Source of the DNA: Candidatus Omnitrophota bacterium
GTDB taxonomy: Bacteria > Omnitrophota > Gorgyraeia > Gygaellales > Profunditerraquicolaceae
Length of the DNA: 41,232 bases
Reading direction: 5' to 3'
NCBI GenBank assembly: GCA_016867095.1
Contig: VGKK01000001.1
Span: 1-41,232, forward strand
Part shown: piece after piece, positions 19,040 through 36,746 of the stretch
Numbering within the stretch: the first letter of the stretch is position 1
How the letters are laid out: the number at the start of each line of letters is the position of its first letter
The notes under the pieces: model-generated
What the model saw: only the letters and a program-made list of their open reading frames with translations
Database searches by the model: none
What the model was told of the DNA's origin: nothing
Translations under genes and position numbers: made by a program

Positions 19040-19044
19040 ATTTT

Positions 19045-19119
19045 GAAAATAGAAAATCGAAATTCGACCGAATCGAAAATCTGTCCTCTAATCAAATCTC
19101 AACTCTCGATTTTCGATTC
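19045..19119. repeat. heptamer-built hairpin (word GAAAATC) upstream of the four-helix-bundle gene
   Basis: The left arm reads GAAAATA GAAAATC GAAATTC GACCGAA TCGAAAATC. A perfect 12-bp stem forms between GAATCGAAAATC (19070-19081) and GATTTTCGATTC (19108-19119). Confidence 0.85.
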
Positions 19120-19120
19120 T

Positions 19121-19170
19121 CTGAAAATTTCGGGCTTGTGGTTTGACTCCAAGCCCGAAATTTTCTGCCC
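19121..19170. repeat. tRNA-minihelix-like hairpin, copy 1 (also a likely bidirectional terminator)
   Basis: GAAAATTTCGGGCTTG-TGGTTTGACTC-CAAGCCCGAAATTTTC is a perfect 16-bp stem with a T-loop-like loop. It is ~85% identical to 21033-21079, including the 19-nt exact block AGCCCGAAATTTTCTGCCC. Confidence 0.85.
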
Positions 19171-19275
19171 GAACTGGTTAATAGACAGAACCTTTAAGAT
19201 TGTATGTCACCTGCCGGAGAAAGGCAAGCGAAACTCTATTGCCCAGCTAAGGCGCGAGAATTTGTTCCTTAAAAC

Positions 19276-19563
19276 TCAATAATCCATCAAATCAAATTCG
19301 TGCAAAAGGATGCGGGCTTTCTCTAGGCATTGTCCGTTAGACCTGATATCATTAACGTCTATACCAAAACAGTAATCGCTGTAGGCAAACTCAAGACTCT
19401 TAAGCCCGGCTTTCTTGGCGATTTTGTTGTATTTTTTCTCTATCTGCATCTCCTTCTTATAAGCGATATCGTAGGCTTTCTCCCTTTCCTGCCACATCTT
19501 CTTAATAAAAGGGTATTTCTGCAGGAACTTTTTGATTAACTTTTTATCTTTAGCAAGTCTCAT
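19276..19563 (-). CDS. hypothetical 95-aa protein, translationally coupled to the AAA ATPase gene
   Basis: Lys-rich ORF with no motif recognised. Its ATG lies 3 nt after the ATPase stop. Confidence 0.5.
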   Translation of the reverse strand: MRLAKDKKLIKKFLQKYPFIKKMWQEREKAYDIAYKKEMQIEKKYNKIAKKAGLKSLEFAYSDYCFGIDVNDIRSNGQCLEKARILLHEFDLMDY

Positions 19564-19566
19564 AAC

Positions 19567-20838
19567 TCACTCCTCCAGGAGCCACCTGTAGATTGGCTTC
19601 ACTAAGACGGCTCTCCCCTTTAATTTTATTTCTTCCTCAGTATCTTCAGTCAGGATAAGAGCGGTTTTTAATTTTAGCTCATCCATGGCTTTTATAAGAG
19701 AATTAAGCTCGCGTTGCCTTGTTTTCTCATTGTCTAAGTTATCCGTTGCCTGAATAAGCCCTAAATCCTTTTTGCCTTTTTTTACCAGGAAATTAACCTC
19801 CAGATTATTTGAGGTTTTATAATAATAGATTTCGGGATATTTCTGTTTCAACTCAAGGAATACGAGATTTTCCAGAAACTTGCCCTTGTTCTTGGAAAAC
19901 TGAAATGCTACTGATTCTGCTAAGCCGTTATCTATGCAGTAGATTTTCTTCAATGCCAAGAATTGCTGCTTCAAGGAATAAGAAAATTTGCTTATCAAAA
20001 ATATCAGGAAGCTGTTTTGCAGGAAGTCGGCATAGCTTTTTATGGTATTCATACTTCCTAAGCCTAATATATTTTTGAGATTGTTATAGGAGAATGTTGC
20101 GCCTATGTTACTGAGGAGATACAGCCCTAACTCTCGCAGAGCCTTGACCTGTTTTATATCGTATCTGGCTACGATATCCCGATACAGGATATCTTCGTAG
20201 GCACGTTTTAATAAGGCCGTATCCTTATATTTTAAGTATTCGGGCATGCCACCATGCTTTAAGTATTCGGCAAAGTGCTTCTTTATATTTGCCCTTTCAG
20301 CTGTGTAAGAAAGACCGTTCTTAGGAAGCTTGACGCCTTTAAAAGACAAAAACTCTGTAAATGAGAATGGATACAGTTCTGTACTTATGTTTCTGCCGGT
20401 TAGCTTTGTGCCCAATTCCTTGCTTAAAAGAGATGCATTTGAGCCGGTTATGAAAAATTTATTGCCCTTATCCTGCATCCGGCGCACAAAGACTTCCCAT
20501 TTAGGCACGTTTTGTATCTCATCAAAGAAAAAGACTTTTCTTTCACCGTAGATTTCTAAGAATGCTTCGTAGAGATTATTAAAATCCTCCACCCCAAAAT
20601 CTACAAGACGCTCATCTTCAAAATTCAAGTAATAGATACCTTTTTTATAGAAATTCTCCGCTATCTGGTTAAGTAGGGTAGATTTGCCGCAACGGCGAAT
20701 TCCTGAGATTACCACAGCATGAGGTAAGGCTGTATGCCTCGAAACGATACCCAAAGCAACTCTTGGGATTCCTGTCTCAATAGCCTTTCGGCCTTGCTCC
20801 TGTTCCAAGACTATTTCTTTTAATAAAGTTTTCTGCAT
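19567..20838 (-). CDS. AAA+ ATPase of the AAA_14/DUF4143 family (COG1373-like)
   Basis: 423 aa. Has Walker A ISGIRRCGKSTLL, Walker B VFFFDEIQ, and the DUF4143-type C-terminal region ...LENLVFLELKQ...LEVNFLVKKGKKDLGLIQAT. Confidence 0.85.
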   Translation of the reverse strand: MQKTLLKEIVLEQEQGRKAIETGIPRVALGIVSRHTALPHAVVISGIRRCGKSTLLNQIAENFYKKGIYYLNFEDERLVDFGVEDFNNLYEAFLEIYGERKVFFFDEIQNVPKWEVFVRRMQDKGNKFFITGSNASLLSKELGTKLTGRNISTELYPFSFTEFLSFKGVKLPKNGLSYTAERANIKKHFAEYLKHGGMPEYLKYKDTALLKRAYEDILYRDIVARYDIKQVKALRELGLYLLSNIGATFSYNNLKNILGLGSMNTIKSYADFLQNSFLIFLISKFSYSLKQQFLALKKIYCIDNGLAESVAFQFSKNKGKFLENLVFLELKQKYPEIYYYKTSNNLEVNFLVKKGKKDLGLIQATDNLDNEKTRQRELNSLIKAMDELKLKTALILTEDTEEEIKLKGRAVLVKPIYRWLLEE

Positions 20839-20874
20839 TTTGGCTCCCTATTCCTATATCTCATCTACAGTGAG

Positions 20875-20913
20875 AATATACCATAGATAATTCTCATTGT
20901 CAATGAGAATTAT
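20875..20913 (-). promoter_or_regulatory. promoter with a perfect 12-3-12 palindromic operator upstream of the AAA ATPase gene
   Basis: ATAATTCTCATT-GTC-AATGAGAATTAT (20887-20913) is a perfect inverted repeat. On the minus strand its centre contains TTGACA (reverse complement of 20898-20903), then a 17-nt spacer, then TATATT (reverse complement of 20875-20880). Confidence 0.55.
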
Positions 20914-21032
20914 TAAAAAATACTTGTATGGGTTTTGCTAAGAGGATTGGGGTCTTAAAAAAATCGGAGGGAAGTTCTAAGCCAGAAATAGATTTTCCAG
21001 AATATCTCTTATTTGTTCAATTTTCGGTTAGT

Positions 21033-21079
21033 CTGTAACTTCGAGCTGTGGTTCGAGTCCAGCCCGAAATTTTCTGCCC
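21033..21079. repeat. tRNA-minihelix-like hairpin, copy 2, abutting the 3' end of tRNA-Gln
   Basis: The sequence is CTGTAACTTCGAGCTGTGGTTCGAGTCCAGCCCGAAATTTTCTGCCC. It aligns with 19121-19170. The last 6 nt overlap the tRNA-Gln 3' end on the opposite strand. Confidence 0.8.
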
Positions 21080-21144
21080 CCCATGGATTCGAACCATGAT
21101 ACCCAGGTCCAGAGCCTGGTGGCCTACCGTTAGCCGAGAGGGCA
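21074..21144 (-). tRNA. tRNA-Gln (anticodon CUG)
   Basis: Hand-folded 71 nt: UGCCCUC-UC-GGCU-AACGGUA-GGCC-A-CCAGG-CUCUGGA-CCUGG-GUAU-CAUGG-UUCGAAU-CCAUG-GGGGGCA-G. It has a 7-bp acceptor stem with U1:A72 and G73 (bacterial Gln identity features), U33, anticodon CUG and a GGUUCGAAUCC T-arm. No CCA is encoded. Confidence 0.85.
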
Positions 21145-21152
21145 AATAGCTA

Positions 21153-21392
21153 TTACCAAAGATTATCTTTTATCCAATTATCCGTGGCCAGGATAAATTT
21201 CCAAAAATTATAGGAATCCTCGCCCGCGCCCTCAACAGCGCCTACCACTGTTGAGCCCATTCCGTAGCCGACACAGGCCACGCCTTCCGCGCTTTTGCCG
21301 ACGCCTTTGCCAAAACCCTTGGTGGTCTCGCAACCAGCGGCAAACACCAACAAAATAAAGAAAACCACTATTCCTATCGCTTTATTTTTCAT
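21153..21392 (-). CDS. small lipoprotein
   Basis: 79 aa. Signal peptide with lipobox LLVFAAGC, Gly-rich mature part. Start overlaps the gltX stop. Confidence 0.6.
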   Translation of the reverse strand: MKNKAIGIVVFFILLVFAAGCETTKGFGKGVGKSAEGVACVGYGMGSTVVGAVEGAGEDSYNFWKFILATDNWIKDNLW

Positions 21393-22693
21393 ACGTTCCC
21401 CCTTTTTACCCAGGCCAGCAATCTTTCTTTTGTCCTTTCCTTTCCTAGATAATATATCACCTCAAACAGCCCCGGCCCAACAGTTTTACCGGTCAAGGCT
21501 GCCCGCACCGGATGGATAAGAACTTTTGCCTCTATATTCAGTTCCCCTACCAGCTGGCGAAAACTAGCCTCAATGCTGGCGATATCAAATTGTTCTAACG
21601 CCTCTAATCTTTCGCTAAAAAGCTTAAATTCCCTGGATAAATCCCGGCTTAAGAATTTTTCCCTGGCTTGAGGGTCTATCTGAATATCTTTCAGAAAAAA
21701 GAAATCCGCCCAATCCGCGAAATCCCTTAGGGTGGACAACCTGCCCTGGAATAATTTTACCAAAGAAATAATATAACCCCTGTCAAAATTACCCTCCTGG
21801 ATGTATTTTTTTTCCGTAAGCAGCGGCAAAATCAGCTCGGTAAGCCTGGCGGGGTCGGCGCCTTTTAGATATTGATTATTCATCCAGTCCAATTTCTTCA
21901 TATCAAAGGTAGCCGCGGTTTTGTTGACGTCCTTAATGTCAAAAATCTTTATCGCCTCGTTAATTTCAATCACCTCGCGGTTTTCTCCGGGCGACCAGCT
22001 TAATAATAGCAGGTAATTAACCAGGGCCTCGGCCAAATACCCCAGGGAGCGGTAATCGCTGATGGCCGTGGCGCCGGTGCGTTTGGAGAGCCGGCCGCCT
22101 TCCATACCCATGATTAAAGGCAGGTGCGCGAAATAAGGCGCCGGCAGCTTTAAGGCCTGATAGAGGAGAGCCTGCTTGGGCGTATTAGAAATATGGTCAT
22201 CGCCCCTGATCACATGCGTAATATTCATCGTGTAATCGTCAACTACGCAGGCAAAATTATAGGTCGGGGTCCCGTCGGATTTAATCAATACCTGGTCTTT
22301 AATGTTGGCGGTGTCAAACTGAATCCTGCCGCGGATTAAATCATCTATAATTACGTTTTGCGGCGTAACTTTATAGATAATCGCCTCGCCCCGGCCCTCT
22401 GTTTTTTCCACATAAGCCAGTTTTTCCTTTAATAAACGCTCGGCGTATTCCCTGTAGATACCCGACCTCTGGCTCTGGTAATAAATCTCATCCCAACAAA
22501 ATCCGAGCCACTTCAGGCTGCCTAATATCTCCTCCACATATTCGGGTTTTGAGCGCAGCTTGTCCGTATCTTCTATGCGCAGGATAAACTTGCCGTCTTT
22601 TGCGCGGGCATAAAGCCAATTAAAAAGCGCGGTGCGGCTGCCGCCGATATGCAAGTTTCCCGTTGGTGAAGGAGCAAAGCGCACCCTAATCAT
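21389..22693 (-). CDS. gltX: glutamate--tRNA ligase
   Basis: 434 aa. FAPSPTGNLHIGGSRTALFNW (HIGH motif) and RLSKR (KMSKS motif). The class I GluRS pattern holds throughout. Confidence 0.9.
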   Translation of the reverse strand: MIRVRFAPSPTGNLHIGGSRTALFNWLYARAKDGKFILRIEDTDKLRSKPEYVEEILGSLKWLGFCWDEIYYQSQRSGIYREYAERLLKEKLAYVEKTEGRGEAIIYKVTPQNVIIDDLIRGRIQFDTANIKDQVLIKSDGTPTYNFACVVDDYTMNITHVIRGDDHISNTPKQALLYQALKLPAPYFAHLPLIMGMEGGRLSKRTGATAISDYRSLGYLAEALVNYLLLLSWSPGENREVIEINEAIKIFDIKDVNKTAATFDMKKLDWMNNQYLKGADPARLTELILPLLTEKKYIQEGNFDRGYIISLVKLFQGRLSTLRDFADWADFFFLKDIQIDPQAREKFLSRDLSREFKLFSERLEALEQFDIASIEASFRQLVGELNIEAKVLIHPVRAALTGKTVGPGLFEVIYYLGKERTKERLLAWVKRGNV

Positions 22694-23220
22694 CTTAACC
22701 TCAACCCCTCTTTCAACGCCTTCTGGTTAATCTCAACCAGGCCCTTTTTATCCGCGGGCGCCATCTCGAAAATAACCTTAAGCACAGTTTTTTCTTCCAC
22801 GATATTCTTTCGGGCGAAGTAACACCCCAGGGCGAGCATATTGGCTACCTTGATATTGCCTAATTTGATTGCCAGGTCAGTAAAGGGGTGGCTTAAAGTC
22901 TCCGTGTTTTTAGGCGGGAGTTTATCCACTAGAGAGCTATTGATAATTAAGAGGGTTTTATTCTTTACCCGCTCTTTAAATTTCTTCAGGGAGGGATTAT
23001 TCATGATGATCAAGCTGTCCGGCTGATTAATACGCGGCGAACCAATGCGGCGATCGGATATTATTACCATGCAATGCGCGGTTCCGCCGCGCACCTCTGC
23101 GCCATAAGCAGGCAGCCAGGTGACAAATTTACCTTCCTGCATCGCTGCTTCTGCGAGAACCTTGCCTAAAAGCATAATGCCCTGGCCGCCGGCTCCTGCT
23201 ATAATAATTTTTTCAATCAT
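22690..23220 (-). CDS. 2-oxoacid:ferredoxin oxidoreductase, gamma subunit
   Basis: 176 aa. IIAGAGGQGIMLLGKVLAEAA is typical of POR/VOR/KOR gamma subunits. Confidence 0.85.
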   Translation of the reverse strand: MIEKIIIAGAGGQGIMLLGKVLAEAAMQEGKFVTWLPAYGAEVRGGTAHCMVIISDRRIGSPRINQPDSLIIMNNPSLKKFKERVKNKTLLIINSSLVDKLPPKNTETLSHPFTDLAIKLGNIKVANMLALGCYFARKNIVEEKTVLKVIFEMAPADKKGLVEINQKALKEGLRLR

Positions 23221-23306
23221 ACAATTCTGTGTAATGTTAAATGTGTAATGTGTAACGCTGGTGTAACGGTTGCCACATTACACGTTACGCTTTAAACGTT
23301 ACACAA
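23221..23306. repeat. word-built imperfect hairpin (word GTGTAAYG) filling the beta-gamma spacer
   Basis: The left arm is GTGTAATGTTAAATGTGTAATGTGTAACGCTGGTGTAACGG. The right arm is CCACATTACACGTTACGCTTTAAACGTTACACAATT. One exact pair is GTGTAACG (23250-23257) with CGTTACAC (23297-23304). Confidence 0.8.
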
Positions 23307-24038
23307 TTATTTAATTCTGCCTAATGGGAACTCTTTGGCCATCACGTTATTAATCCAATCCAGCGCCTGCCTGGGAGGCATCGCCCAATAAGTCGGGCAA
23401 GGCGATAATATCTCCACCAAAGAGAACCCTACATGATCAATTTGATTCTGGAAGGCCTGCCTTATCGCCTTTTTGGTTTTCATCACTTCTTGGGGCGAAG
23501 ACAGCGCCGTCCTTTCAATATATTTTACGCCGGCAAGTAATGCCAGCATCTCGGAAATCTTTAAAGGATAGCCCTCTTCGGGCTTTCTTCCCTGCGGGGT
23601 GGTGGCGGTCTTTTGCCCCAGTAAAGTAGTAGGGGCCATCTGGCCGCCGGTCATACCGTAAACCGCGTTATTAATAAAAATGACGGTCAGGTTTTCGCCG
23701 CGGTTAGCGGCATGTATGGTCTCGTTGGTCCCGATAGCCGCTAAATCCCCGTCCCCCTGATAGGTAAAGACGATATTTTGCGGCCTGACTCTTTTTATCG
23801 CCGTAGCCACAGCCAGGGCCCGGCCGTGCGCCGCCTCAGAACAGTCAAAATCCCAATAATCATAGGCGATTACCGCGCAACCCACCGGAGCAACGGCAAT
23901 AACCTGCTCTCTGATATTTAATTCATCCACCACTTCCGCGATCAGCCTGTGGGCTATGCCGTGCCCGCAGCCCGCGCAGTAGTGCGTGGATATGTTACGT
24001 AGGGATTTAGAATGACTGAATACTTTACCCATAATCAA
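23307..24038 (-). CDS. 2-oxoacid:ferredoxin oxidoreductase, beta (TPP-binding) subunit
   Basis: 243 aa. Has CAGCGHG and the TPP motif GDGDLAAIGTNETIHAANRGENLTVIFINNAVYGMTGGQ. The likely true start is ATG at 24032. Confidence 0.9.
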   Translation of the reverse strand: MIMGKVFSHSKSLRNISTHYCAGCGHGIAHRLIAEVVDELNIREQVIAVAPVGCAVIAYDYWDFDCSEAAHGRALAVATAIKRVRPQNIVFTYQGDGDLAAIGTNETIHAANRGENLTVIFINNAVYGMTGGQMAPTTLLGQKTATTPQGRKPEEGYPLKISEMLALLAGVKYIERTALSSPQEVMKTKKAIRQAFQNQIDHVGFSLVEILSPCPTYWAMPPRQALDWINNVMAKEFPLGRIK

Positions 24039-24043
24039 TTTCC

Positions 24044-24180
24044 TAAATTACAATAAACAAATTACAAATCACAAACAATATACAATACCAAAATCACAAT
24101 GACCAAATGGTTCCATATGTAATTTTGGTCATTTGATATTTGGATTTGTTTGTAATTTGGAATTTGTGATTTGGGATTTA
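24044..24180. repeat. ACAA/TTGT heptamer-built long hairpin, empty copy (family core CAAAATCACAATGACCAAA)
   Basis: The left arm (24044-24107) is TAAATTACAATAAACAAATTACAAATCACAAACAATATACAATACCAAAATCACAATGACCAAA. The right arm (24124-24180) is TTTGGTCATTTGATATTTGGATTTGTTTGTAATTTGGAATTTGTGATTTGGGATTTA. On the minus strand a 12-codon mini-ORF (MTKITYGTIWSL*, 24094-24132) starts at the arm ATG. Confidence 0.85.
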
Positions 24181-24183
24181 ACA

Positions 24184-25242
24184 TTATAGTTTTTTTATCT
24201 TGCTTATTATTTCTTCCTCTGAGGGAATTCCGCCGCCGGAGCGGCCTAAAAATCCGACTTCTGCCTGGCCGTCAAGCGTTAACCTAACATCCTCCAGCAT
24301 CTGGCCATAAGACATCTCCGCCACTAAAAACTTTACGCGCCTGCGCGCTCGCGAATTGACGAGCCGAAAGGCATTTTCCGGAAACGGCCAGAGAGATATA
24401 GGACGAATTAACCCGACTTTCTTTGCCTTTTCTCTTAACCTTTCCACTGCTGCCCGGCAGATTCTCGCCATTGTCCCGTAAGCTACAATGATTACTTTGG
24501 CGTCGTCTAAAAACAGGCCCTCATAACGCTGCTCTCTTATTTTTATAGTTTTATATTTCTTTTGTAACAAAAGGTTGACCTTCTCTAAGTCGCCCTCTTT
24601 CATATAAAAAGATTTTACGATATTGGGCGTCCTACCTTTACAGCCGGTCAACGCCCACTTTTTATTCTGACGGGTGACGTGGTGACGTGGTGACGTGGTG
24701 ACGTGTAAAGGTTCCATCGTCTGCCCCAGCATCCCGTCGCCCAAAATAATTACGGGATTACGGTACTTATCCGCTAAATCAAAGGCCGCAGGCATAAAAT
24801 CATACGCCTCCTGCACAAAAGAAGGCGCCAAGACGATGCAATGATAATCTCCGTGGCCGCCGCTGCGCGTAGCCTGGAAATAATCGGATTGCGCCGGCCA
24901 GATATTGCCCAGGCCCGGCCCGCCCCGCATCACATCAACAATCACCGCCGGTAATTCCGCGCCTGCCATATAAGAGATGCCTTCCTGCTTCAGGCTGATA
25001 CCCGGGCTTGAAGACGAGGTCATCGCCCTTGCCCCGCAGGCCGCGGCGCCAAAGACCATGTTGATGGCGGCCAGCTCTGATTCTGCCTGGATAAACACCC
25101 CGCCTGCCTGCGGCATATGTCCGGCCATATAGGCGGGGATTTCATTCTGGGGAGTAATAGGGTAGCCGGCATAGAAACGGCAGCCTGCCTGGATCGCTCC
25201 CTCAGCCATTGCCTCGTTACCTGTCATTAATATACGTTTCAT
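24184..25242 (-). CDS. 2-oxoacid:ferredoxin oxidoreductase, alpha subunit
   Basis: 352 aa. MTGNEAMAEGAIQAGCRFYAGYPITPQNEI... is typical of KorA/VorB/PorA N-termini. Substrate not assignable. Confidence 0.9.
   Translation of the reverse strand: MKRILMTGNEAMAEGAIQAGCRFYAGYPITPQNEIPAYMAGHMPQAGGVFIQAESELAAINMVFGAAACGARAMTSSSSPGISLKQEGISYMAGAELPAVIVDVMRGGPGLGNIWPAQSDYFQATRSGGHGDYHCIVLAPSFVQEAYDFMPAAFDLADKYRNPVIILGDGMLGQTMEPLHVTTSPRHHVTRQNKKWALTGCKGRTPNIVKSFYMKEGDLEKVNLLLQKKYKTIKIREQRYEGLFLDDAKVIIVAYGTMARICRAAVERLREKAKKVGLIRPISLWPFPENAFRLVNSRARRRVKFLVAEMSYGQMLEDVRLTLDGQAEVGFLGRSGGGIPSEEEIISKIKKL
24673..24704. repeat. perfect tandem octamer array (GGTGACGT)x4 inside the alpha-subunit CDS
   Basis: Read directly. 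It encodes part of PLHVTTSPRHHVTRQ on the minus strand. Confidence 0.97.
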
Positions 25243-25248
25243 AACGTT

Positions 25249-25330: not shown

Positions 25331-25340
25331 CTGATGCCCC

Positions 25341-25544: not shown

Positions 25545-25548
25545 ATTA

Positions 25549-28848: not shown

Positions 28849-28853
28849 TTATA

Positions 28854-30749: not shown

Positions 30750-31527
30750 TATATTTTTTCTGTATTCTAACAATGGCCCTTGCTTTTCCGGTATCCTCAT
30801 TAATATCTAAAACCGCGCCCTGCAGTTGAATATTTTCCGTGGCCACCTCAAAGCGCTTAGGCACTGAGGTCAGGAACCTTTCTAAAACATCCTCTACTTT
30901 CCTGCCGATGACCGAATCCAGCGGACCGGTCATACCCACATCCGTAATGTAGGCGGTGCCTTGCGGCAGAATCCGCTCATCCGCGGTCTGCACGTGGGTA
31001 TGCGTGCCTAAAACCGCGGAGACCAAGCCGTCTAAATACCAGCCCAGGGCCACTTTTTCGGAAGTAGCCTCGGCATGGATATCCACAATGATCACTTTTG
31101 TATCTTTGACTAACGCCTCCTGCGCCTGGCGGGTGCCCCTAAAAGGGCACTCCAGTGCCTCCAGAAAAACCCGGCCTTGCGCGTTCACCACGCCTATTTT
31201 CAGGCCATTGGCCGCCTTAAATAACCCCCATCCCTGCCCTGGCGCGCCTGCGGGAAAATTTACCGGCCTTAAAATCCTATCCTCCTGATTAATAATCTCT
31301 AAGACTTCCCTCTTCTTCCAAATGTGGTCTCCGGAAGTAAGCACATCTAATCCGCCGGCAAATAATTCTTCGGCTACTTGCGGCGTAATCCCTGAGCCGC
31401 CGGCGGCATTCTCGGCGTTGGCAATGCTAAAATCCAGGTTAAACTCTTTTTTTAAACCCGGCAGGAGCTTCTTTATCGCCTCCCTGCCCGGAGAACCCAC
31501 TATGTCACCAATAAATAAAATATTCAT
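30742..31527 (-). CDS. ymdB: YmdB-like metallophosphoesterase (TIGR00282 family)
   Basis: 261 aa. Has MNILFIGDIVGSPGR, NAENAAGGSGIT and GTHTHVQTADE. Lies directly downstream of rny, as in Firmicutes. Confidence 0.85.
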   Translation of the reverse strand: MNILFIGDIVGSPGREAIKKLLPGLKKEFNLDFSIANAENAAGGSGITPQVAEELFAGGLDVLTSGDHIWKKREVLEIINQEDRILRPVNFPAGAPGQGWGLFKAANGLKIGVVNAQGRVFLEALECPFRGTRQAQEALVKDTKVIIVDIHAEATSEKVALGWYLDGLVSAVLGTHTHVQTADERILPQGTAYITDVGMTGPLDSVIGRKVEDVLERFLTSVPKRFEVATENIQLQGAVLDINEDTGKARAIVRIQKKYNV

Positions 31528-31537
31528 TGCATACCCT

Positions 31538-31706
31538 GGTTACGCTATTCGGCTACGGTTACGATGCCCGTTTCGTTAAGAGGTTAGGTATAGCGTTTGA
31601 AATGTTGGCCGGTGAACGAGTGAGCCGGTGAACCGGTTAACTGGCAAACCGGTTAACCCGCTAACCTTTTTACGATACGGGCTTCGTTGCCTTAACCGTT
31701 ACCTAA
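31538..31706. repeat. word-built structured spacer (words GGTTACG / CCGGTGAAC / AACCGGTTAAC) between rny and ymdB
   Basis: The inverted pair TTACGATGCCCGTTTCGTTAA (31559-31579) and TTACGATACGGGCTTCGTT (31670-31688) is 14/16 complementary in its core. GGTTAGGTA pairs with TACCTAATCC. The centre has two CCGGTGAAC and two AACCGGTTAAC palindromes. Confidence 0.75.
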
Positions 31707-31708
31707 TC

Positions 31709-33265
31709 CTATTTAGCGTATTCTATCGCTCTAGTTTCCCTGATTACTGTCACCTTAATCTGCCCGGGATACTCCATACCTTCTTCTATTTTTTTGCGGA
31801 TATCCCGCGCCATATTAATCGCCTCGCTGTCCGTAATCTTTTCGGGCTGCACAATAACCCGGATCTCGCGGCCGGCCTGGATGACAAAAGATTTTTCTAC
31901 GCCCTTAAAAACATTGGCGATGGACTCCAGTTTCTCCAGCCTCTTAATATAGGTCTCTAATGTTTCGCGCCTTGCCCCGGGCCTGGAGGCGCTGATGCCA
32001 TCCGCGGCCACGGCTAAAACCGCGTAGAGGCTCTGGGGCGCGGCCTCCTCGTGATGGGATTCTATCGCCTGCACCACTTCCTGCGGCTCGTTATATTTTC
32101 TGGCAAGGTCTGCCCCGATTTTAGCGTGCGTGCCTTCTACCTGGTGGTCAACCGCCTTGCCGATATCGTGCAGCAGGCCGACGCGCCGGGCCATACGAAA
32201 GTCCAGCCCTATCTCCGAAGCCAAGGCGCCCAAAATAAAAGAAACTTCCTTGGAATGCTGCAGGGCATTCTGGCCAAAGCTGGTGCGGTATCTCAACCGG
32301 CCAAGGAGCTTAATCAGCTCCGGATGCAAGCCGTTAACCCCGGCCTCAAAGGCGGCATGTTCGCCCTCTTCGCGGATTTTGTCTTCCATCTCCTTTTGGG
32401 TCTTCTCTACTATCTCTTCAATCCTTCCCGGATGGATTCTGCCGTCGGAAATAAGCTTTTCCAAACTGATACGCGCTATTTCCCGGCGCACAGTATCAAA
32501 ACTAGACAAGGTAACCGCCTCCGGCGTATCATCAATAATCACATCCACGCCGGTGGCCATTTCAAAGGCGCGGATATTCCTTCCTTCCCTGCCGATGACC
32601 CTGCCCTTCATCTCGTCGCCGGGCAAATTGACCACGCTCACCGTGGATTCTACCGTATGCTCCACCGCGCACTTCTGGATACTCAGGCTGACTATTTCCC
32701 TGGCCTTTTTCTCCGCCGCGCTGCGCATCTCTTCTTCCTGCCGCCTGATGAGCACCGCCTTTTCCATACTCAACTCCTCATTCAAACGGCTGAGTAAAAT
32801 CTGCTTTGCTTCTTCGGCGGACAAGGAAGCGATCTTCTGCAATCTTTCCTTCTCTTCGGCAATCAGGGCGTGGAGCTGATTATCCTTTGCCTTTATGGCA
32901 TCTTCCTGTTTTTTTACGTTATCCAGCTTTAGGCCGATTTCCTTTTCCTTTGCCTCTAAAAGGCCGAGCCGGCGGTCAATATTCTCTTCCTTCTGCGCCA
33001 GCCTTTTTTCTAAATTGGCAATTTCCTGGCGCCGGTCTTTGGTCTCGCGCTCAAAATCCTGGCGCATGCGGTAGAGCAGGTCTTTTGCCTCCAGCTCTAC
33101 TTCGCGCTTACGGTCCTGCGTCTGTTTTTTGGCCTCTTCTAAGATTTGCCTGGCCTTTTCTTCGGCATCCTGAATCTTTTTTTCCGCTATATATTTCCTT
33201 AATGCATAACCGGCATACACCGAGATTAACGCCACAACTATGGAAAATACAATTGTATTTAACAT
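31709..33265 (-). CDS. rny: ribonuclease Y
   Basis: 518 aa. Has an N-terminal TM helix, a coiled coil, a KH domain (GREGRNIRAFEMATGVDVIIDD) and an HD domain (LLHDIGKAVDHQVEGTHAKIG). Confidence 0.93.
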   Translation of the reverse strand: MLNTIVFSIVVALISVYAGYALRKYIAEKKIQDAEEKARQILEEAKKQTQDRKREVELEAKDLLYRMRQDFERETKDRRQEIANLEKRLAQKEENIDRRLGLLEAKEKEIGLKLDNVKKQEDAIKAKDNQLHALIAEEKERLQKIASLSAEEAKQILLSRLNEELSMEKAVLIRRQEEEMRSAAEKKAREIVSLSIQKCAVEHTVESTVSVVNLPGDEMKGRVIGREGRNIRAFEMATGVDVIIDDTPEAVTLSSFDTVRREIARISLEKLISDGRIHPGRIEEIVEKTQKEMEDKIREEGEHAAFEAGVNGLHPELIKLLGRLRYRTSFGQNALQHSKEVSFILGALASEIGLDFRMARRVGLLHDIGKAVDHQVEGTHAKIGADLARKYNEPQEVVQAIESHHEEAAPQSLYAVLAVAADGISASRPGARRETLETYIKRLEKLESIANVFKGVEKSFVIQAGREIRVIVQPEKITDSEAINMARDIRKKIEEGMEYPGQIKVTVIRETRAIEYAK

Positions 33266-33346
33266 CGCTTAAACGACCTCCTTCGATGAAATTGCTGGCG
33301 GTGAAAATTTGGACCGATAAATTACAGGTTAGGCCCTTATGTTTGA

Positions 33347-33961
33347 CTAGGCAAAGATGACTTTATTGACGCAGATATCTCTTTTGGTGGCGGGGATGCT
33401 CGGTAAGATTTGGAAATCAAATGCCAGGGCAACAGCCGGTATTCTCCGGGGTAACTTACGCAAAAAATAATCGTAGCAGCCTTTACCGCGGCCTAAACGG
33501 TTGCCTTTTTTATCAAAGGCGACTCCTGGCACAATCACAAGGCCTAAGTCCTCTAAATTAATCGTTTCTTTTATCGCGGGTTCGCATACCCCGTAAGGGC
33601 CTTTTTTAAGCCTGGCCCTCTCGGAGAATACGCAGGGCTTGATTGCTCTTTTTTTGCCGCAAACCGGAACCGCGACTATCTTACCTAATTTTAAAGCTTC
33701 CTCTATCATTCTTTTTGTGTTTACCTCGCCATCAAACGAGAGATAAAACATCACTGTCTTTGCCTTTTGAAAAAGTTGCGTCCGAAAAAGCTTATCCTTA
33801 ATTAACCCGCTTTTTCTTTCTCGTTCCTCCTCCTTCTGTGATTTTAACTTAAGTAAGAGTTTACTACGGATTTGCTGCTTTGTCAACCCCGTTACAATTT
33901 TTACCACACGGCTGGCATTCCCAAAATTGGCTATGATGTCAAATTTTGCCTTTGGTTTCAT
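33347..33961 (-). CDS. 5-formyltetrahydrofolate cyclo-ligase (MTHFS) with a ~45-aa N-terminal extension or a later true start
   Basis: 204 aa. Has VMFYLSFDGEVNT and IVPGVAFDKKGNRLGRGKGCYDYFL, the MTHFS signature. Confidence 0.8.
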   Translation of the reverse strand: MKPKAKFDIIANFGNASRVVKIVTGLTKQQIRSKLLLKLKSQKEEERERKSGLIKDKLFRTQLFQKAKTVMFYLSFDGEVNTKRMIEEALKLGKIVAVPVCGKKRAIKPCVFSERARLKKGPYGVCEPAIKETINLEDLGLVIVPGVAFDKKGNRLGRGKGCYDYFLRKLPRRIPAVALAFDFQILPSIPATKRDICVNKVIFA

Positions 33962-34009
33962 TTTAAGGGCTTTCTCAGAAATTGTAACGGGGTCAATGCC
34001 ACATAGATA

Positions 34010-34132
34010 GCACCGTTTGCTAATTCAATCTTGCAGCGTTTACGAATTTAATCTCGTAACTGTACCCTCTGCCTAGGTACACTTACAATCTTAAATTTAA
34101 AAACGTTACCCGATTGGGTTTGCAAACGGTGC
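34010..34132. repeat. structured spacer with nested inverted repeats between iscU and the MTHFS gene
   Basis: The outer pair is perfect and 11 bp long: GCACCGTTTGC (34010-34020) with GCAAACGGTGC (34122-34132). Both members are followed by TAATT. The inner pair is TGTACC (34061-34066) with GGTACA (34076-34081). GTAACG/CGTTAC words recur. Confidence 0.75.
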
Positions 34133-34141
34133 TAATTTAAT

Positions 34142-34630
34142 TTAATGTTCGTGGGCGTCGGCCTTGGGCTCTCCCGTCCCATGTTGATGATTCTCGGGCG
34201 GGATCCCGTCCGCGCCTGAAATATCTGGACGGGAAAAGGCGCTGGGGTCTTTGCCGATTTTCTTGTAGTAATCCGCTAAGGCTGCCCGAAGCGCCTGCTC
34301 GGCCAAAACCGAACAGTGCATTTTTATGGCCGGCAAGCCCCCTAAGGCCTCAGCTACCGCCTTATTGGAAATTTTCAGCGCCTCTTCAATGGTCTTGCCC
34401 TTGACCATTTCGGTAACCATTGAGCTGGTCGCAATAGCCGCGCCACACCCCATAGTTTTAAACTTAGCATCAACAATTATGTTATTCTCAACCTTAATAT
34501 ACATCTTCATAATGTCGCCACAGATAGCATTTCCAACAGTGCCTACGCCATTGGCATCGGGAATTTCTCCGACATTCTTCGGATGCATAAAATTTTCCAT
34601 CACTTTTTCGCTGTAATTTAAATCGCTCAT
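34142..34630 (-). CDS. iscU: Fe-S cluster scaffold, IscU/NifU N-terminal domain family
   Basis: 162 aa. Has the three scaffold Cys contexts NAICGDIMK, GCGAAIATSS and HCSVLA. The C-terminal tail is His/acid-rich. Confidence 0.85.
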   Translation of the reverse strand: MSDLNYSEKVMENFMHPKNVGEIPDANGVGTVGNAICGDIMKMYIKVENNIIVDAKFKTMGCGAAIATSSMVTEMVKGKTIEEALKISNKAVAEALGGLPAIKMHCSVLAEQALRAALADYYKKIGKDPSAFSRPDISGADGIPPENHQHGTGEPKADAHEH

Positions 34631-34650
34631 ATTAATGAGGAATCATTATG

Positions 34651-34848
34651 AAATCACCAATAACCAAGATACAATTACCAAACAAATTCTCCCGACAAAG
34701 TCGGGATCCCGCTAAATTTTAATTTTAGCGCGGGACAATATTCAATAACCAATCACCAAATAAAATCTCTAAGAACGCCGCGTTTGGCTATTGAGATTTG
34801 GTTATTGGTTATTGTTTGGTTATTGGAACTTGGAATTCGGTTATTTCG
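34651..34848. repeat. three-arm word-built element (word AATAACCAA / TTGGTTATT) upstream of iscU
   Basis: Two same-sense arms lie at 34651-34690 and 34736-34770, both ACCAA-rich. One complementary arm lies at 34792-34848 (GAGATTTGGTTATTGGTTATTGTTTGGTTATTGG...). Two small GC hairpins sit between the same-sense arms: CCCGAC-AAA-GTCGGG (34691-34705), and 34708-34734. Confidence 0.8.
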
Positions 34849-34852
34849 TGCT

Positions 34853-35515
34853 TTAGATTTTGTCATCTGTCATTACCATTTTATGTGGTTTTAGGCCTTT
34901 TTTATAGTCCTTCGGGCTTTGTACTTTTTTTAACGTATCCAGTTTTTTACGCTTTTCTAATTCCTGGTAAATTAACACCCAGGCGCAATCTTTGTCCTTA
35001 TCCACCTCGCACTTACCTTTATTCATCCCGCCGCAAGGGCCGTTTAATAATCCCTTGGCGCAAAGCGTAATCGGGCAAATGCCGCCGGTAACATCCAAGA
35101 CACATTCTCCGCAAAGAGAACATTTTTCATAAAAATTACCCTGGGCATCCATTACCGCGCCGAATAAGGTATTGCAGGCGGGTATGGCTACTAAGCCCAG
35201 CCGGTCATTATCCTTGACTGATTGCACTCCCAAGCCGCAGGCCAAAACTAAAATTGCCTCAGCTTCGCGCCAGGCCTTTGTATTCTTGGCTATTTCGGTC
35301 TTGATTTGGCTGGCCACGCAAGGCGCGGAAGGAATACACATCCCCACTACGGTTTTACCCTGCGCCTCTAACAGCGCTTTCATTTCGGCCAATTCCGGCT
35401 CTCCGCCGGTCTTAGCGGTAGCGGCGCACTCGCCGCAGCCGACCAGGAATATCTTAGTATAGCCTTTTAAGCTATCTATAATCTGCTGAATGGGTTTCTG
35501 CTCTGTGATAATCAT
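34853..35515 (-). CDS. MetV-like protein (methylenetetrahydrofolate reductase C-terminal-domain family)
   Basis: 220 aa. CSLCGECVLDVTGGICPITLCAKGLLNGPCGGMNKGKCEVDKDKDCAW is the MTHFR_C/MetV Cys pattern. Confidence 0.7.
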   Translation of the reverse strand: MIITEQKPIQQIIDSLKGYTKIFLVGCGECAATAKTGGEPELAEMKALLEAQGKTVVGMCIPSAPCVASQIKTEIAKNTKAWREAEAILVLACGLGVQSVKDNDRLGLVAIPACNTLFGAVMDAQGNFYEKCSLCGECVLDVTGGICPITLCAKGLLNGPCGGMNKGKCEVDKDKDCAWVLIYQELEKRKKLDTLKKVQSPKDYKKGLKPHKMVMTDDKI

Positions 35516-36080
35516 CTTAGTCTCTTTAAATATTTGAGATCTTCCGAATCCTTAGGCCGACCAGCCGCGCGTTTCATTTTTATAAGATCCTTTAAGGAAG
35601 CAAAGTAAACGAAAGTGCCGCCAAATTTTGCTCTTACTTTATTTTTCCACGCCTCCTCAAAGGTTATGCCTTTTACAAAAGGATGAATATCTGTCTCTAC
35701 CGCATACTGCCGAATGAGTAATTTCTTCTGAAGCAATTCTTCTATTTTAATATCGGCTACTAAATGCCTTTAAAGCTTGCCATGTCTTTTCGGCGTTGGC
35801 TATAGTTGGCCTAATAAAAATATCAATATCTAAAGTTGCGCGGGCATATCCATGAACTGGAAAAGCGGTCGCGCCAATAATTACGAAATCTACCCTATGT
35901 TCTTTTAATGATTTCAGAAGGTTTTCGGCGTCCATTTTTTCTTAATAGACCGGCCATTTCTTTTGATTTTTTAAACATCATCTCAAAGCGTTCTTTAAGC
36001 GAAAGCGATTGCAAAAATCTTAATTCAAACTCAATTTCTTTTGCCTGATTATGCCTGCTTAACTTTAGAATCATCGTCAT
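35512..36080 (-). pseudogene. minimal nucleotidyltransferase-fold (MNT/AbiEii-like) gene split over three reading frames
   Basis: Three ORFs, 35895..36080, 35747..35935 and 35512..35736, follow each other in frames 2, 1 and 0. The middle piece has VDFVIIGATAFPVHGYARATLDIDIFI (NTase G[SA]...DxD). The last piece ends with LKDLIKMKRAAGRPKDSEDLKYL. The first junction lies in an A6 run (plus-strand T6 at 35935-35940). Confidence 0.5.
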
Positions 36081-36215
36081 TTACTCCTACTTCCATTTTA
36101 CATAGATTTTTGGAAGTATCAAGGAAATTTAAGGCGGGATTAAAACAAAGGGGCGCCTCTGTATTTGGCCTTTTTTGGGCTGATAGACCGTGAAAGGCAG
36201 GACGCCCCTTTTATT

Positions 36216-36692
36216 AAATAACAAATTCCAAATCACAAATTACAAACAATATACAAATCCAAAATTACAATGACCGAAACTTCTCTATTGTGCCTTGCAA
36301 ATAATAGCGGTAAATATATTCCTCAACTCTTGCGATTCTTTAATAAACGTAATGATTTCCCCTGTGAAGCCTGATTGGCTTGCTTTAATAGTTCTAACCA
36401 ATAGCTGCTTTCCTTGCATTCCTTTCTTGTAATCTTCATTCTATGTATAAAATCCTTCTTGCTTAATGCCTCATTTGCCTCTCTGTAATTTGCGCCCACG
36501 GAACCGGAGGCATCTATTAGTTGGCCAATTAATCTTAAGTTAATCACGTCTTTTGGCAACTTACCGCATAACCTAATTATCCCTTTGGAAAATTCCAAAG
36601 TCCTTTCTTCTAAATTATATATTTTGCTTTGGTATTCGGTCATTTGGTATTGTAATTTGTTTGTAATTTGTATATTGTGTATTGTGATTTAA
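36216..36692. mobile_element. IVS-like cassette: ACAA/TTGT long inverted repeat with a four-helix-bundle gene as loop cargo
   Basis: The left arm (36216-36279) is ...CCAAATCACAAATTACAAACAATATACAAATCCAAAATTACAATGACCGAAA. The right arm (36635-36692) is TTCGGTCATTTGGTATTGTAATTTGTTTGTAATTTGTATATTGTGTATTGTGATTTAA. The inner ends are ATGACCGAA and TTCGGTCAT. The arms are homologous to the elements at 24044-24180 and 30608-30741. Calling it mobile is an inference. Confidence 0.6.
36323..36643 (-). CDS. four-helix-bundle protein (23S rRNA intervening-sequence protein family)
   Basis: 106 aa. LEERTLEFSKGIIRLCGKLP...QLIDASGSVGANYREANEALSKKDFIHRMKITRKECKESSYWLELL is the family signature. Its start codon ATGACCGAA is the inner end of the repeat arm. 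Confidence 0.85.
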   Translation of the reverse strand: MTEYQSKIYNLEERTLEFSKGIIRLCGKLPKDVINLRLIGQLIDASGSVGANYREANEALSKKDFIHRMKITRKECKESSYWLELLKQANQASQGKSLRLLKNRKS

Positions 36693-36746
36693 CCTCTACC
36701 ACTATAATAGACGTGGTTACCCATCAAATCTAACACCTATTTTTTA

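Follow-up and report, generated by a model that had tools for sequence, protein, structure and literature searches.

Tandem-word hairpins and a four-helix-bundle gene between operon genes of a Candidatus Omnitrophota bacterium

Hairpins and tandem words of the window

The window, a 41,232-nt stretch of a Candidatus Omnitrophota contig, contains hairpins in the spacers between protein-coding genes, among them the genes for OFOR subunits, ymdB, rny and iscU, together with two genes of the PF05635 four-helix-bundle family. Its features are listed below, where z is the score of the RNA fold against 200 dinucleotide shuffles.

10441–10610, minus strand: three direct tandem arrays with periods of 9–11, a doubtful member (z −2.4)
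18695–19039, minus strand: second four-helix-bundle protein gene (PF05635, E = 1.2e-30)
19045–19119, minus strand: GAAAATC-word hairpin, statistically weak (TRF period 7, 5 copies; z −2.0)
23221–23306, minus strand: GTGTAAY-word hairpin from the OFOR beta TAA to the gamma ATG (TRF period 7, 4 copies; z −2.8)
24044–24180, minus strand: ORF-less AAWTACA hairpin in the OFOR alpha–beta spacer (inverted repeat of 49–50 nt; z −4.7)
24668–24705, minus strand: in-frame octamer run, CACGTCAC, 4.9 copies, inside the OFOR alpha gene (inverted-repeat search and TRF)
25249–25330, minus strand: hairpin of GTCAC/GGTGAC octamer words in the OFOR delta–alpha spacer (TRF period 8, 3.8 copies; z −4.0)
25941–25974, minus strand: perfect in-frame octamer run, GTCACCAA, 4.2 copies, in the dxs inter-domain linker (inverted-repeat search and TRF)
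30604–30744, minus strand: ORF-less AAWTACA hairpin directly 3' of the ymdB stop codon (z −5.3 for 30608–30741)
31538–31706, minus strand: nested hairpin between rny and ymdB (TRF period 8, 6.2 copies; z −4.8)
34008–34134, minus strand: long hairpin, arms of 59 nt, in the spacer separating iscU from the 5-FTHF cyclo-ligase gene (TRF period 23, 2 copies; z −9.5)
34641–34848, minus strand: hairpin of AATAACC words separating the MTHFR C-terminal-domain gene from iscU (TRF period 7, 4.6 copies; z −6.1)
36214–36692, minus strand: full-length element with a PF05635 gene in its loop (inverted repeat of 50 nt, 76% complementary)
36323–36643, minus strand: four-helix-bundle (23S rRNA intervening-sequence protein family) gene (PF05635, E = 1.6e-15)

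TRF analysis of the whole window revealed 11 merged period-7/8 runs of at least 2.8 copies, compared with 0.17 ± 0.37 expected from 30 shuffles preserving local composition. The shared construction principle described in the original prediction is real. All 11 runs were confined to 19045–36246, and 9 of them lay in non-coding DNA, although this makes up only 13% of the window. As in heptamer simple sequence repeats, the 7-nt units are arranged head to tail and are mainly intergenic. At least six words occur within the 41 kb, AAWTACA being the only one that recurs.

Six of nine spacers folded far better than their shuffles (z −4 to −9.5), whereas three (19045–19119, 23221–23306, and 10441–10610) reached only −2.0 to −2.8; the inverted repeats were recovered independently of RNA folding. 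The original description of ten non-coding heptamer or octamer hairpins was largely borne out, with 36216–36692, 10441–10610, and 34010–34132 misdescribed. The possible two-arm hairpin at 10441–10610, downstream of a winged-helix ORF, was rejected, as only direct tandem arrays were found there. The element at 34010–34132 is a hairpin and the strongest of all, but its arms are built from a twice-repeated 23-nt unit, not from heptamers. At 31538–31706, an outer stem of GGTAACG-type words encloses an inner palindrome (31600–31669) of CCGGTGAA octamers, and the loop of 34641–34848 nests two small hairpins. The 23221–23306 hairpin occupies the entire OFOR beta–gamma spacer, from stop codon to start codon. 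The second four-helix-bundle gene (PF05635, 106.3 bits; TIGR02436, 102.1 bits; PDB 2GSC, E = 1e-10) has no enclosing arms; the weak hairpin at 19045–19119 ends 5 nt upstream of it. A Treponema plasmid locus has a comparable layout, with a hairpin upstream of a four-helix-bundle gene.

A role as ordinary intrinsic terminators or attenuators that separate transcription units is very improbable for the hairpins. They do lie just 3' of stop codons, and a small G+C-rich stem with a T-rich tail after it, inside 34641–34848, gives the only terminator-like match among them. However, the stems are long, A+T-rich, and imperfect, without T-runs, and several hairpins abut the next start codon inside conserved operons; both terminator-like matches (23 vs. 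25 ± 5 expected) and promoter-like matches (36 vs. 29.5 ± 5.3 expected) in 18500–37000 were at chance level. An Rfam covariance-model scan of the window at the gathering score returned tRNA-Gln only and no RNA family over the hairpins.

Octamer runs of the GTCAC word were also found within two coding regions. The run at 24668–24705 is 88% complementary to the arm at 25249–25281, and that at 25941–25974 is 95% complementary to 25249–25269. The dxs linker is hypervariable, and its length with the run equals that in 41 orthologues; the run thus replaces linker sequence at unchanged length, which looks more like local conversion or an in-situ origin than like insertion.

The gene-carrying AAWTACA element and its relatives

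The stretch 36216–36692 had been taken as non-coding, but a PF05635/TIGR02436 gene lies between its arms (ORF 36323–36643; PF05635, 57.6 bits, cut-off 33.8; TIGR02436, 69.2 bits, cut-off 24). The A/C-rich heptamer arm (36643–36692) reaches and includes the ATG (36641–36643), which is also covered by stem pairing further inward, and the G/T-rich arm lies at 36214–36263. The arms pair in both the MFE and centroid folds (496 nt), with the start codon within the stem, so that complementary ends form an ORF-enclosing stem as in 23S intervening sequences. Relatives of the product are approximately 119 aa long and match its residues 1–96 only; because the C-terminal helix is encoded in another frame (36285–36419), this gene copy is probably frameshifted. 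The identical protein sequence was found on independent assemblies, with no more than one copy of the exact protein per assembly searched. PDB 2RLD was a further structural match, beside 2GSC. The four-helix-bundle/23S-intervening-sequence protein family is very widespread, and we know of no function for it outside diversity-generating retroelements, nor of catalytic or recombinase activity for the PF05635 four-helix bundle.

The AAWTACA family, with three copies in the window, had been read as plain spacer hairpins; it is instead the terminal-arm pair of this PF05635-carrying element. Both 24044–24180 and 30604–30744 align with the left arms of ORF-bearing elements, including 'CAAATGACCAAA', which 24044–24180 retains at the inner end of its arm, and they keep the start-codon region of the PF05635 gene. 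Judged by these alignments, the two hairpins are ORF-less copies of the gene-carrying element. Over dozens of loci and species, the family keeps its arm sequence and an inner ATGACC motif. In the closest relative (L010), 30604–30744 is conserved, with arms identical at 58/63 and 52/58 positions and the loop at 9/20; the arms are thus approximately 91% identical, compared with 51% (47/92) of the 4-fold sites in the adjacent ymdB.

Among metagenomic relatives of the window protein (52–88% aa identity), inverted repeats flanked the gene (z ≥ 4) in 45 of 75. A PF05635 gene is likewise enclosed by inverted arms in locus L017, and in L124, L139, L140, and L160 ORF-less and ORF-bearing copies lie near each other. 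The gene was oriented like its upstream neighbour in 48 cases vs. 3 and like its downstream neighbour in 45 vs. 10, and a search for conserved rRNA motifs placed none of the 80 loci of metagenomic relatives in an rRNA gene. At sampled plasmid loci, from Cyanobacteriota, Chloroflexota, Bacillota, Bacteroidota, and Spirochaetota, an inverted repeat spanned the gene (z ≥ 5) in 12 of 15 vs. 1 of 45 neighbouring genes, and period-7 arrays stood on both sides in 11 of 15 vs. 0 of 46 controls, each locus having its own word. The pairing of gene and arrays is reproducible over six phyla, with a different word per gene.

The arrays show microsatellite-like behaviour, and adjacent genes can contain in-frame runs of the same word. 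Perfect arrays reach 41 copies, which fits the role of footprints of a repeat-generating mechanism suggested at the outset. On a Dolichospermum plasmid, 11 AATTACG arrays surround the PF05635 gene; 8 of them lie inside three neighbouring ORFs, and 7 were seen in frame as (ITNYELR)n-type repeats. The window runs in dxs and OFOR alpha parallel these arrays, pointing to words spreading locally into coding DNA.

Orthologous junctions and the origin of the hairpins

We compared the junctions in 80 Omnitrophota species that share this gene order. The spacer was 10 nt or less in 37 of 79 cases for rny–ymdB, 47 of 57 for mthfrC–iscU, and 48 of 61 for iscU–fthf. The longer rny–ymdB spacers mostly held hairpins with species-specific words, and the prediction that words differ while the architecture is kept holds in these orthologous spacers. 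L010, whose RNase Y is 91% identical, lacks three window hairpins by alignment (31538–31706, where rny and ymdB overlap, 34008–34134, and 34641–34848). Period 7 accounted for 71 of 100 runs of period 6–9 in 913 kb of Omnitrophota loci, which had been selected independently of the PF05635 gene.

Element families were common to unrelated junctions and to both orientations. The 23221–23306 hairpin is homologous to the rny–ymdB element of L019, with both arms approximately 90% identical in another species and at another junction, and is therefore real despite its weak z. Elements related to 25249–25330 lie, inverted, in the rny–ymdB spacers of L086 and L056. Two copies occur in L069. No target-site duplications were visible at 31 element ends, and the elements shared no termini beyond a loose TTAAAT...ATTTAA. 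Elements lodge at junctions within co-directional operons; they are gained and lost over the time scale of species, and their families recur at unrelated junctions. Conserved operon features were rejected as a description, given the usually spacerless junctions, the three hairpins lacking in L010, and the same families at unrelated junctions. Because of this recurrence, the hairpins are, on the sequence comparison, insertions and not conserved regulators.

These data bear on a regulatory origin, in which the hairpins would be host RNA structures that are processed by RNase III or RNase Y, stabilise the mRNA, or couple translation. They would be under selection for tuning expression in the polycistronic mRNAs, with the gene as an occasional passenger. 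Such an origin would accord with well-folding hairpins within co-directional operons, with arms at 30604–30744 far more conserved than neutral sites, and with an element (23221–23306) spanning exactly stop to start codon at two unrelated junctions. RNase III is also known to cleave 23S intervening sequences that carry this gene family, and heptamer repeats alter recF and recO expression in Nostoc (bioRxiv 10.1101/2022.06.06.494920). We nevertheless consider it improbable: orthologous junctions are mostly spacerless, L010 lacks three hairpins, one family occurs at unrelated junctions in both orientations, and runs lie inside essential genes too, where slippage by one unit is a frameshift. Moreover, G:U vs. 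A:C stem mismatches numbered 42:53 and 61:56, and without an excess of G:U the stems give no positive sign of RNA-level selection.

Growth in place, without mobility, would have a short palindrome, for instance a terminator or a coupling hairpin, expand by 7–8-nt slippage and be copied to the other arm by template switching, the gene merely tending to sit there. The own word of each element, the lack of shared termini and target duplications, the symmetric G:U and A:C mismatches, and the unchanged length of the dxs linker agree with it, as do the very unequal perfect arrays on the two sides of one gene (approximately 5 vs. 38 copies in Nostoc; few vs. 13 in Euhalothece). It is nonetheless improbable, since AAWTACA arms and the inner ATGACC persist over dozens of loci and species, 23221–23306 and the L019 element have approximately 90% identical arms at non-orthologous junctions, L069 has two copies, and ORF-less copies keep the start-codon region of the gene.

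We consider it fairly probable that the hairpins are palindromic insertion elements, copies within a class whose full-length form carries a four-helix-bundle gene in its loop. Each arm would be an array of a 7–8-nt word, and the opposite arm the same array inverted; in the full-length form, the loop would hold a PF05635/TIGR02436 gene of approximately 120 aa whose start codon falls within the inner end of the 5' arm, and the bare hairpins would be ORF-less derivatives or non-autonomous relatives. For the growth of the arms and the role of the elements as RNA, we propose the following. Replication slippage would grow and turn over the arms. Folding back may make an insertion tolerable in a compact operon by rejoining the upstream stop and the downstream start. 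The transcript would form a long imperfect duplex comparable to the RNase III-excised duplexes of 23S rRNA intervening sequences, and read-through of the host operon would express the gene-bearing form. Given that G:U mismatches are not in excess, the RNA-level part of this explanation lacks positive support. Sequence ties the gene to the AAWTACA family only, the other words being tied by architecture, which counts against the insertion-element explanation. PF05635 genes are also scarce beside word hairpins (one vs. approximately 50 in the 913 kb of rny loci), and neither target duplications nor, in the window, a fitting recombinase was found; among the window's ORFs, the single transposase-like one is a Mutator-family fragment. 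Further points against it are the length-preserving run in dxs, the apparent frameshift and single copy of the window's gene, the lack of a known catalytic activity of its product, and the position of the related loci outside rRNA genes by motif search.

More speculatively, and in our estimate rather unlikely, PF05635 proteins may be the missing partner of heptamer repeats (STRR, Xanthomonas GGGAATC, and the window arrays), binding the arrays of their own gene or helping a polymerase to generate them; arrays would then spread locally, also in frame, and give rise to ORF-less hairpins. This reading is modelled on the homologue Avd, an assistant of a reverse transcriptase.

Comparison with known systems

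Intervening sequences of 23S rRNA (Leptospira, Coxiella) carry an S23p/IVP ORF in a stem loop. The window element resembles them in having the same protein family in the loop of an end-formed stem, in a highly transcribed unit, co-oriented and sporadic, but sits between protein-coding genes and not inside 23S rRNA; to our knowledge, heptamer-built arms have not been described for them. A 23S rRNA intervening sequence (helix 25 or 45) was rejected, as the flanking genes are protein-coding and the sole Rfam match in the window is a tRNA.

MITEs, REP/BIME, ERIC, Correia, and Rickettsia palindromic elements are other small palindromic repeats, those of Rickettsia also entering coding sequences in frame. 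REPINs are likewise small palindromic repeats (PMC3116915). As in MITEs, the bare window hairpins are small, with terminal inverted repeats and no coding capacity, and one family has multiple dispersed copies (window, L019, L086, L056, L010, and L069). All these repeat classes share with our elements short, co-transcribed fold-backs at gene junctions, dispersed families, and ORF-less kin of a gene-bearing form. In contrast, our elements have no transposase or RAYT, no target duplications, and arms of family-specific tandem words; Pfam scans of the window ORFs revealed no RAYT (IS200/IS605-like) gene, and the product of the longer gene-bearing relative is a four-helix bundle, not a transposase. 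In Omnitrophota operons, which are otherwise very compact, the hairpins lengthen the spacers.

Heptamer repeats of bacteria have been on record since 1990, and several phyla show an over-representation of them; we know of no accepted origin, partner, or function. STRR, the short tandemly repeated heptamers of heterocystous cyanobacteria (Calothrix, Nostoc, and Anabaena; cited in PMC4692102), are mostly intergenic and often beside start codons; a small number of words, used genome-wide in direct arrays, have been described for them. The window arrays are likewise tandem heptamers, mostly intergenic and often near starts, but belong to another phylum, use many words, and are paired as hairpins. 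Naming STRR as the nearest precedent was apt: plasmid homologues of the window protein are mostly from Nostocales, with the gene flanked by classic heptamer arrays, one of which is TTTTGAA/AAAATTC, a heptamer family studied in Nostoc 7120 (bioRxiv 10.1101/2022.06.06.494920). In Beggiatoaceae, TAACTGA forms intergenic heptamer arrays near start codons, some within ORFs in the stop-free orientation, almost always as direct arrays with a single inverted repeat reported (PMC4679880). These are also heptamers near starts outside cyanobacteria, but of one word and hardly ever in inverted arrangement.

Avd, the accessory protein of diversity-generating retroelements, is a four-helix bundle forming nucleic-acid-binding pentamers (PMC10053308). 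Its protein family is homologous, whereas ORF profile scans of the window revealed no reverse transcriptase, template, or variable repeats.

Inverted heptamer pairs outside cyanobacteria have a precedent: Xanthomonas has 70–75 convergent GGGAATC array pairs per genome, potentially forming stem-loops or cruciforms (Rehm et al. 2015, PMC4692102), most of them conserved in place between two species. Each genome has a single G-rich word, read as quadruplex-forming, with no associated gene noted (PMC4692102). X. campestris encodes a PF05635 protein (PDB 2GSC). Heptamer arrays and inverted heptamer pairs are thus already published, whereas we found no report in the literature linking heptamer arrays to a PF05635 gene. 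Their pairing merges two puzzles into one testable question, for which Nostoc, Dolichospermum, and Xanthomonas are cultivable carriers. Four-helix-bundle genes with arrays could be mistaken for CRISPR-linked genes, and the arrays place frameshift-prone repeats in essential and defence genes. Xanthomonas is similar to the window in combining non-cyanobacterial inverted heptamer pairs with, in X. campestris, a PF05635 protein and differs in its single G-rich word and in the absence of a noted gene.

Word hairpins in the operon spacers

All genes of the window are encoded on the minus strand, and Pfam analysis named those around the hairpins, which run in the mRNA sense from 35515 to 21389 as mthfrC (methylene-THF reductase C-terminal-domain gene), iscU, fthf (5-FTHF cyclo-ligase gene), rny, ymdB, a GH39-like gene, xseA, xseB, dxs, the OFOR delta, alpha, beta, and gamma subunit genes, and gltX. 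The best 80 relatives of the RNase Y were all from Candidatus Omnitrophota genomes (77–91% amino-acid identity), and other contigs carrying the window's proteins belonged to the same freshwater metagenome series.

The original prediction held that ten non-coding stretches form hairpins with arms of tandem 7–8-nt words. TRF analysis revealed 11 merged runs with a period of 7 or 8 and at least 2.8 copies, compared with 0.17 ± 0.37 in 30 shuffles preserving composition; nine of them lay in the non-coding 13% of the window, and all lay within 19045–36246. RNA folding of nine spacers, each scored against 200 dinucleotide shuffles, gave z-scores of −4.0 to −9.5 for six, with weak values for 19045–19119 (−2.0), 23221–23306 (−2.8), and 10441–10610 (−2.4), and a separate inverted-repeat search recovered the same hairpin arms. 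On these run and fold counts the prediction mostly stood, with four corrections. The stretch 10441–10610 was found to consist of direct tandem arrays with a period of 9–11 instead of a hairpin; 34010–34132 formed the best hairpin of the set, with arms built from a 23-nt repeat unit rather than from heptamers; and 36216–36692 is not non-coding, as its arms enclose a PF05635/TIGR02436 ORF (36323–36643).

As the fourth correction, the GTCAC word was also found within two genes:
24668–24705, octamer run in OFOR alpha, CACGTCAC × 4.9
25941–25974, octamer run in dxs, GTCACCAA × 4.2, perfect
The 3' arm of the intervening GTCAC spacer hairpin was complementary to both the OFOR alpha run (88% over 33 nt) and the dxs run (95% over 21 nt). 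The dxs run lies in a hypervariable linker, the length of which is unchanged relative to 41 orthologues. Promoter and terminator scans of 18500–37000 gave matches at chance level, which makes it unlikely that the hairpins are ordinary terminators, and an Rfam scan of the window returned tRNA only.

Further features of the window were as follows:
21073–21145, minus strand, tRNA-Gln; its 3' end and flank are repeated about 1.9 kb downstream (19124–19176 and 21040–21082, about 40 nt nearly identical), bracketing an AAA_14/DUF4143 ATPase gene (19567–20838) and a 95-aa ORF in a segment with the appearance of a tRNA-integrated island
17737–18210, fur gene between A+T-rich inverted repeats 17691–17715 and 18221–18245 (25 nt, 84% complementary), possibly Fur boxes
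10788–10828, perfect 13-nt tandem repeat GGTGGCCAGAAAA × 3.2 at the overlap of three ORFs (11193–11960, 10755–11186, and 10600–10854) that read as fragments of one AlbA_2/HATPase_c_4/winged-helix protein, the frameshift of which it may cause
12063–13052, ORF with a partial Mutator-family transposase match (profile positions 244–347 of 379), the window containing no recombinase besides this fragment
35512–36080, three short co-directional ORFs (74, 62, and 61 aa) separating mthfrC from the gene-bearing element; the first and second look like the two parts of a single broken gene
about 36150–36210, G+C-rich hairpin after the gene-bearing element
39686–40092, 117-nt tandem repeat (3.5 copies, 77% identity) within a 1494-aa ORF (36747–41231) with zero Pfam matches

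Distribution at operon junctions across Omnitrophota

The order mthfrC-iscU-fthf-rny-ymdB-...-xseA-xseB-dxs was common to the 80 rny loci, in which tight junctions were the norm.

Junctions with a spacer of 10 nt or less
rny-ymdB: 37/79
mthfrC-iscU: 47/57
iscU-fthf: 48/61

The rny-ymdB spacer was at least 50 nt long in 33 species, and the majority of these spacers contained a tandem-word hairpin with a word that varied by species (e.g., GTGTAAT, AGTAACT, CGTTAAT, GCGTTAT, CGTCTTC, GGGTCAT, GTCACC, AGCTCAT, CGATAGT, TTCATAG, and AAAGGTT). The expectation that orthologous spacers would keep the architecture with differing words was borne out here. The idea of a core common to every word, such as GTNAC, was rejected, as several words misfit. 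Unbiased scoring of co-directional spacers placed 48 of 205 above the 99th percentile of shuffles, and of the 100 tandem runs with a period of 6–9 in the 913 kb of these loci, which were not selected for the PF05635 gene, 71 had period 7.

In the closest relative (L010), the genes abut or overlap at the sites of the 31538–31706, 34008–34134, and 34641–34848 hairpins. The hairpin of the OFOR spacer (23221–23306) shared both arms with an rny-ymdB element of another locus (L019), each spanning TAA to ATG; the GTCAC hairpin of the window had oppositely oriented matches in L086 and L056; and one hairpin family occurred twice in L069. The absences in L010 and the recurrence of families at non-orthologous sites thus identify the hairpins as lineage-specific insertions of dispersed families, which insert at operon junctions and are present sporadically among species.

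At least one hairpin is under sequence constraint. L010 does have an orthologue of 30604–30744, with 58/63 and 52/58 identical positions in the arms and 9/20 in the loop, compared with 47/92 at the 4-fold degenerate sites of the ymdB gene beside it. This constraint, together with the stop-to-start fit of another hairpin, would agree with a host-regulatory role, but three things make such a role improbable: the hairpins are patchily distributed, their families recur in either orientation at unrelated junctions, and frameshift-prone runs occur within essential genes.

Three other observations concern these junctions. A different spacer motif, conserved palindromes GGGACTGTCCCC then ACGACAAGATAAG not composed of tandem words, was seen immediately upstream of ymdB in the rny-ymdB spacers of L013, L032, L051, L052, L063, L073, and L083. 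The hairpin family TTAATTCGCGC...ACTTACTCAC...GTTCGTAAGT was common to several species and to different junctions, namely rny-ymdB (L077, L078, and L084) and xseB-dxs (L057, 11711–11845). A 2.8-kb rny-ymdB insertion in L085 (7578–10363), seen in one species, was rejected as an element because it comprises two ordinary glycosyltransferase-type genes (one for a large membrane protein, the other for a fused glycosyltransferase-methyltransferase) without arms or flanking repeats.

A four-helix-bundle gene within the hairpins

The AAWTACA family of the window includes a gene-bearing element:
36643–36692 and 36214–36263, arms
36323–36643, ORF matching PF05635 (23S rRNA intervening-sequence protein) and TIGR02436 (four helix bundle protein)
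The start codon of this ORF falls in the innermost part of the 5' arm, and the fold predicted for all 496 nt of the element has it base-paired. With about 119 aa in relatives of the protein and a final helix readable in a different frame in the window copy, the ORF seems frameshifted near its end. The AAWTACA hairpins 24044–24180 and 30604–30744 align to the left arms of gene-bearing elements and keep 'CAAATGACCAAA' at the would-be ORF start, which identifies them as copies of this family that lack the ORF. Another PF05635 gene (18695–19039) starts 5 nt beyond the hairpin 19045–19119. Exact protein look-up of both four-helix-bundle proteins returned only their own locus, in several assemblies from the same lake. 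We know of no catalytic activity for the PF05635 protein.

Searching metagenomes for relatives of this protein identified 80 loci (52–88% identity). Among the 75 with sufficient flank, 45 had an upstream A/C-rich heptamer arm pairing with a downstream complement (z ≥ 4); a second detector gave a higher count, and ORF-less copies stood beside gene-bearing ones in several loci. Among the rny loci, the sole gene-bearing case (L017) had the same build as the window's element, with relatives too distant upstream of mthfrC for an empty-site comparison. A tblastn search against 72,556 plasmids returned 31 records, 16 from Nostoc and the remainder mostly from other filamentous cyanobacteria, with Bacteroidota, Chloroflexota, Spirochaetota, and Bacillota also represented; 15 loci fetched from these records were compared with neighbouring genes as controls, and each had its own word.

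Flanking repeats of plasmid PF05635 genes and neighbouring control genes
Inverted repeat spanning the gene, z ≥ 5: 12/15 and 1/45
Period-7 arrays on both sides: 11/15 and 0/46

Words at plasmid loci
Dolichospermum: GTAATTC
Nostoc (three loci): CAAGTCG, AAGTCGG, GAAGTCG
Planktothrix: AATCCCC and AATCGTA
Aulosira: AAAATTC
Gloeocapsa: GATTTTA
Euhalothece: ACTGGTC, 13 perfect copies
Chlorohelix: GAAGGAT
Treponema: AGGAAAG × 41 and CTCTCCG
Monoglobus: 14-nt unit

These results demonstrate a class of fold-back elements in which arrays of a 7–8-nt word, inverted relative to each other, make up the two arms; the class has a gene-bearing form, whose loop holds a PF05635 gene, and ORF-less forms alongside. 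Array copy number varies in the manner of microsatellites. Purely in-place growth of the hairpins would accommodate the word diversity, arrays of unequal size, and a dxs linker of unchanged length; we nevertheless regard it as doubtful, given the conserved families and the start-codon motif retained in ORF-less copies.

The plasmid genes were located within operons, for instance between a helicase and a methyltransferase gene of defence systems, between hsdS and hsdR, between an RND adaptor and its permease, and between cas2 and cas1. Metagenomic copies had the same orientation as the upstream neighbour in 48 cases versus 3 and as the downstream neighbour in 45 versus 10. A complete Dolichospermum plasmid contained 11 AATTACG arrays, nine of them perfect, in a 6.4-kb stretch surrounding the gene; the three neighbouring ORFs hold eight of the arrays, and seven of these eight are seen in frame as (ITNYELR)n-type repeats. 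These in-ORF arrays parallel the GTCAC runs in dxs and OFOR alpha of the window, and a word can spread locally into coding DNA.

Two plasmid observations stand apart. The Dolichospermum plasmid locus L185, which has the AATTACG gene-bearing element, also contains an ORF-less hairpin (703–762; ATTTTGG × 4.4 then CCAAAAT × 3) with a word different from that around its PF05635 gene. In Pseudanabaena (L179, 4001–4369) and Anabaena (L180, 3992–4339) plasmids, a four-helix-bundle gene was located in CRISPR-cas operons beside cas1/cas2.

Possible mechanism and relation to known repeats

Sense-strand counts of G:U versus A:C mismatches from unbiased arm alignments (42:53 in spacer hairpins; 61:56 in gene-bearing elements, p = 0.71) gave no RNA signature in a test that is weak because of slippage-driven turnover. 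The own right arm was the best partner of a left arm in 6 of 26 elements, a comparison that says little on concerted evolution because one vocabulary is common to the family. No target-site duplications or conserved termini were found at the element ends except a loose TTAAAT...ATTTAA, and no conserved 16S/23S motifs in the 80 related loci.

The word differs wholly across homologous proteins while the two sides are still complementary, an indication that the element depends on pairing, be it of DNA or of RNA. The arms may turn over by slippage, and strong co-orientation suggests that the PF05635 gene is expressed through read-through from the host operon. Folding back would bring the upstream stop and downstream start together, so that insertion could be tolerable. 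In 23S intervening sequences a long duplex is the RNase III substrate, and on RNA the fold-back would form a long duplex resembling it.

STRR, the tandem heptamers of cyanobacteria, and heptamer over-representation in several bacteria have long been known. Xanthomonas genomes each carry 70–75 convergent GGGAATC array pairs that are potential stem-loops (PMC4692102), and Beggiatoaceae carry TAACTGA arrays (PMC4679880). A Nostoc study ascribed regulatory effects to heptamers and postulated an unidentified binding partner (bioRxiv 10.1101/2022.06.06.494920). The Avd protein of diversity-generating retroelements is homologous to PF05635 (PMC10053308), and a large screen put the family among CRISPR-linked genes (PMC10910872), a listing that could be due to its position between cas genes and its flanking repeats. 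Our literature search, of partial coverage and hence absence of evidence only, found no description of the PF05635/TIGR02436 family paired with heptamer arrays. Neither this type of repeat nor its arrangement as hairpins is new; what appears to be new is, most of all, the link to a gene, along with the phylum, the use of several words in one genome, and the position at operon junctions.
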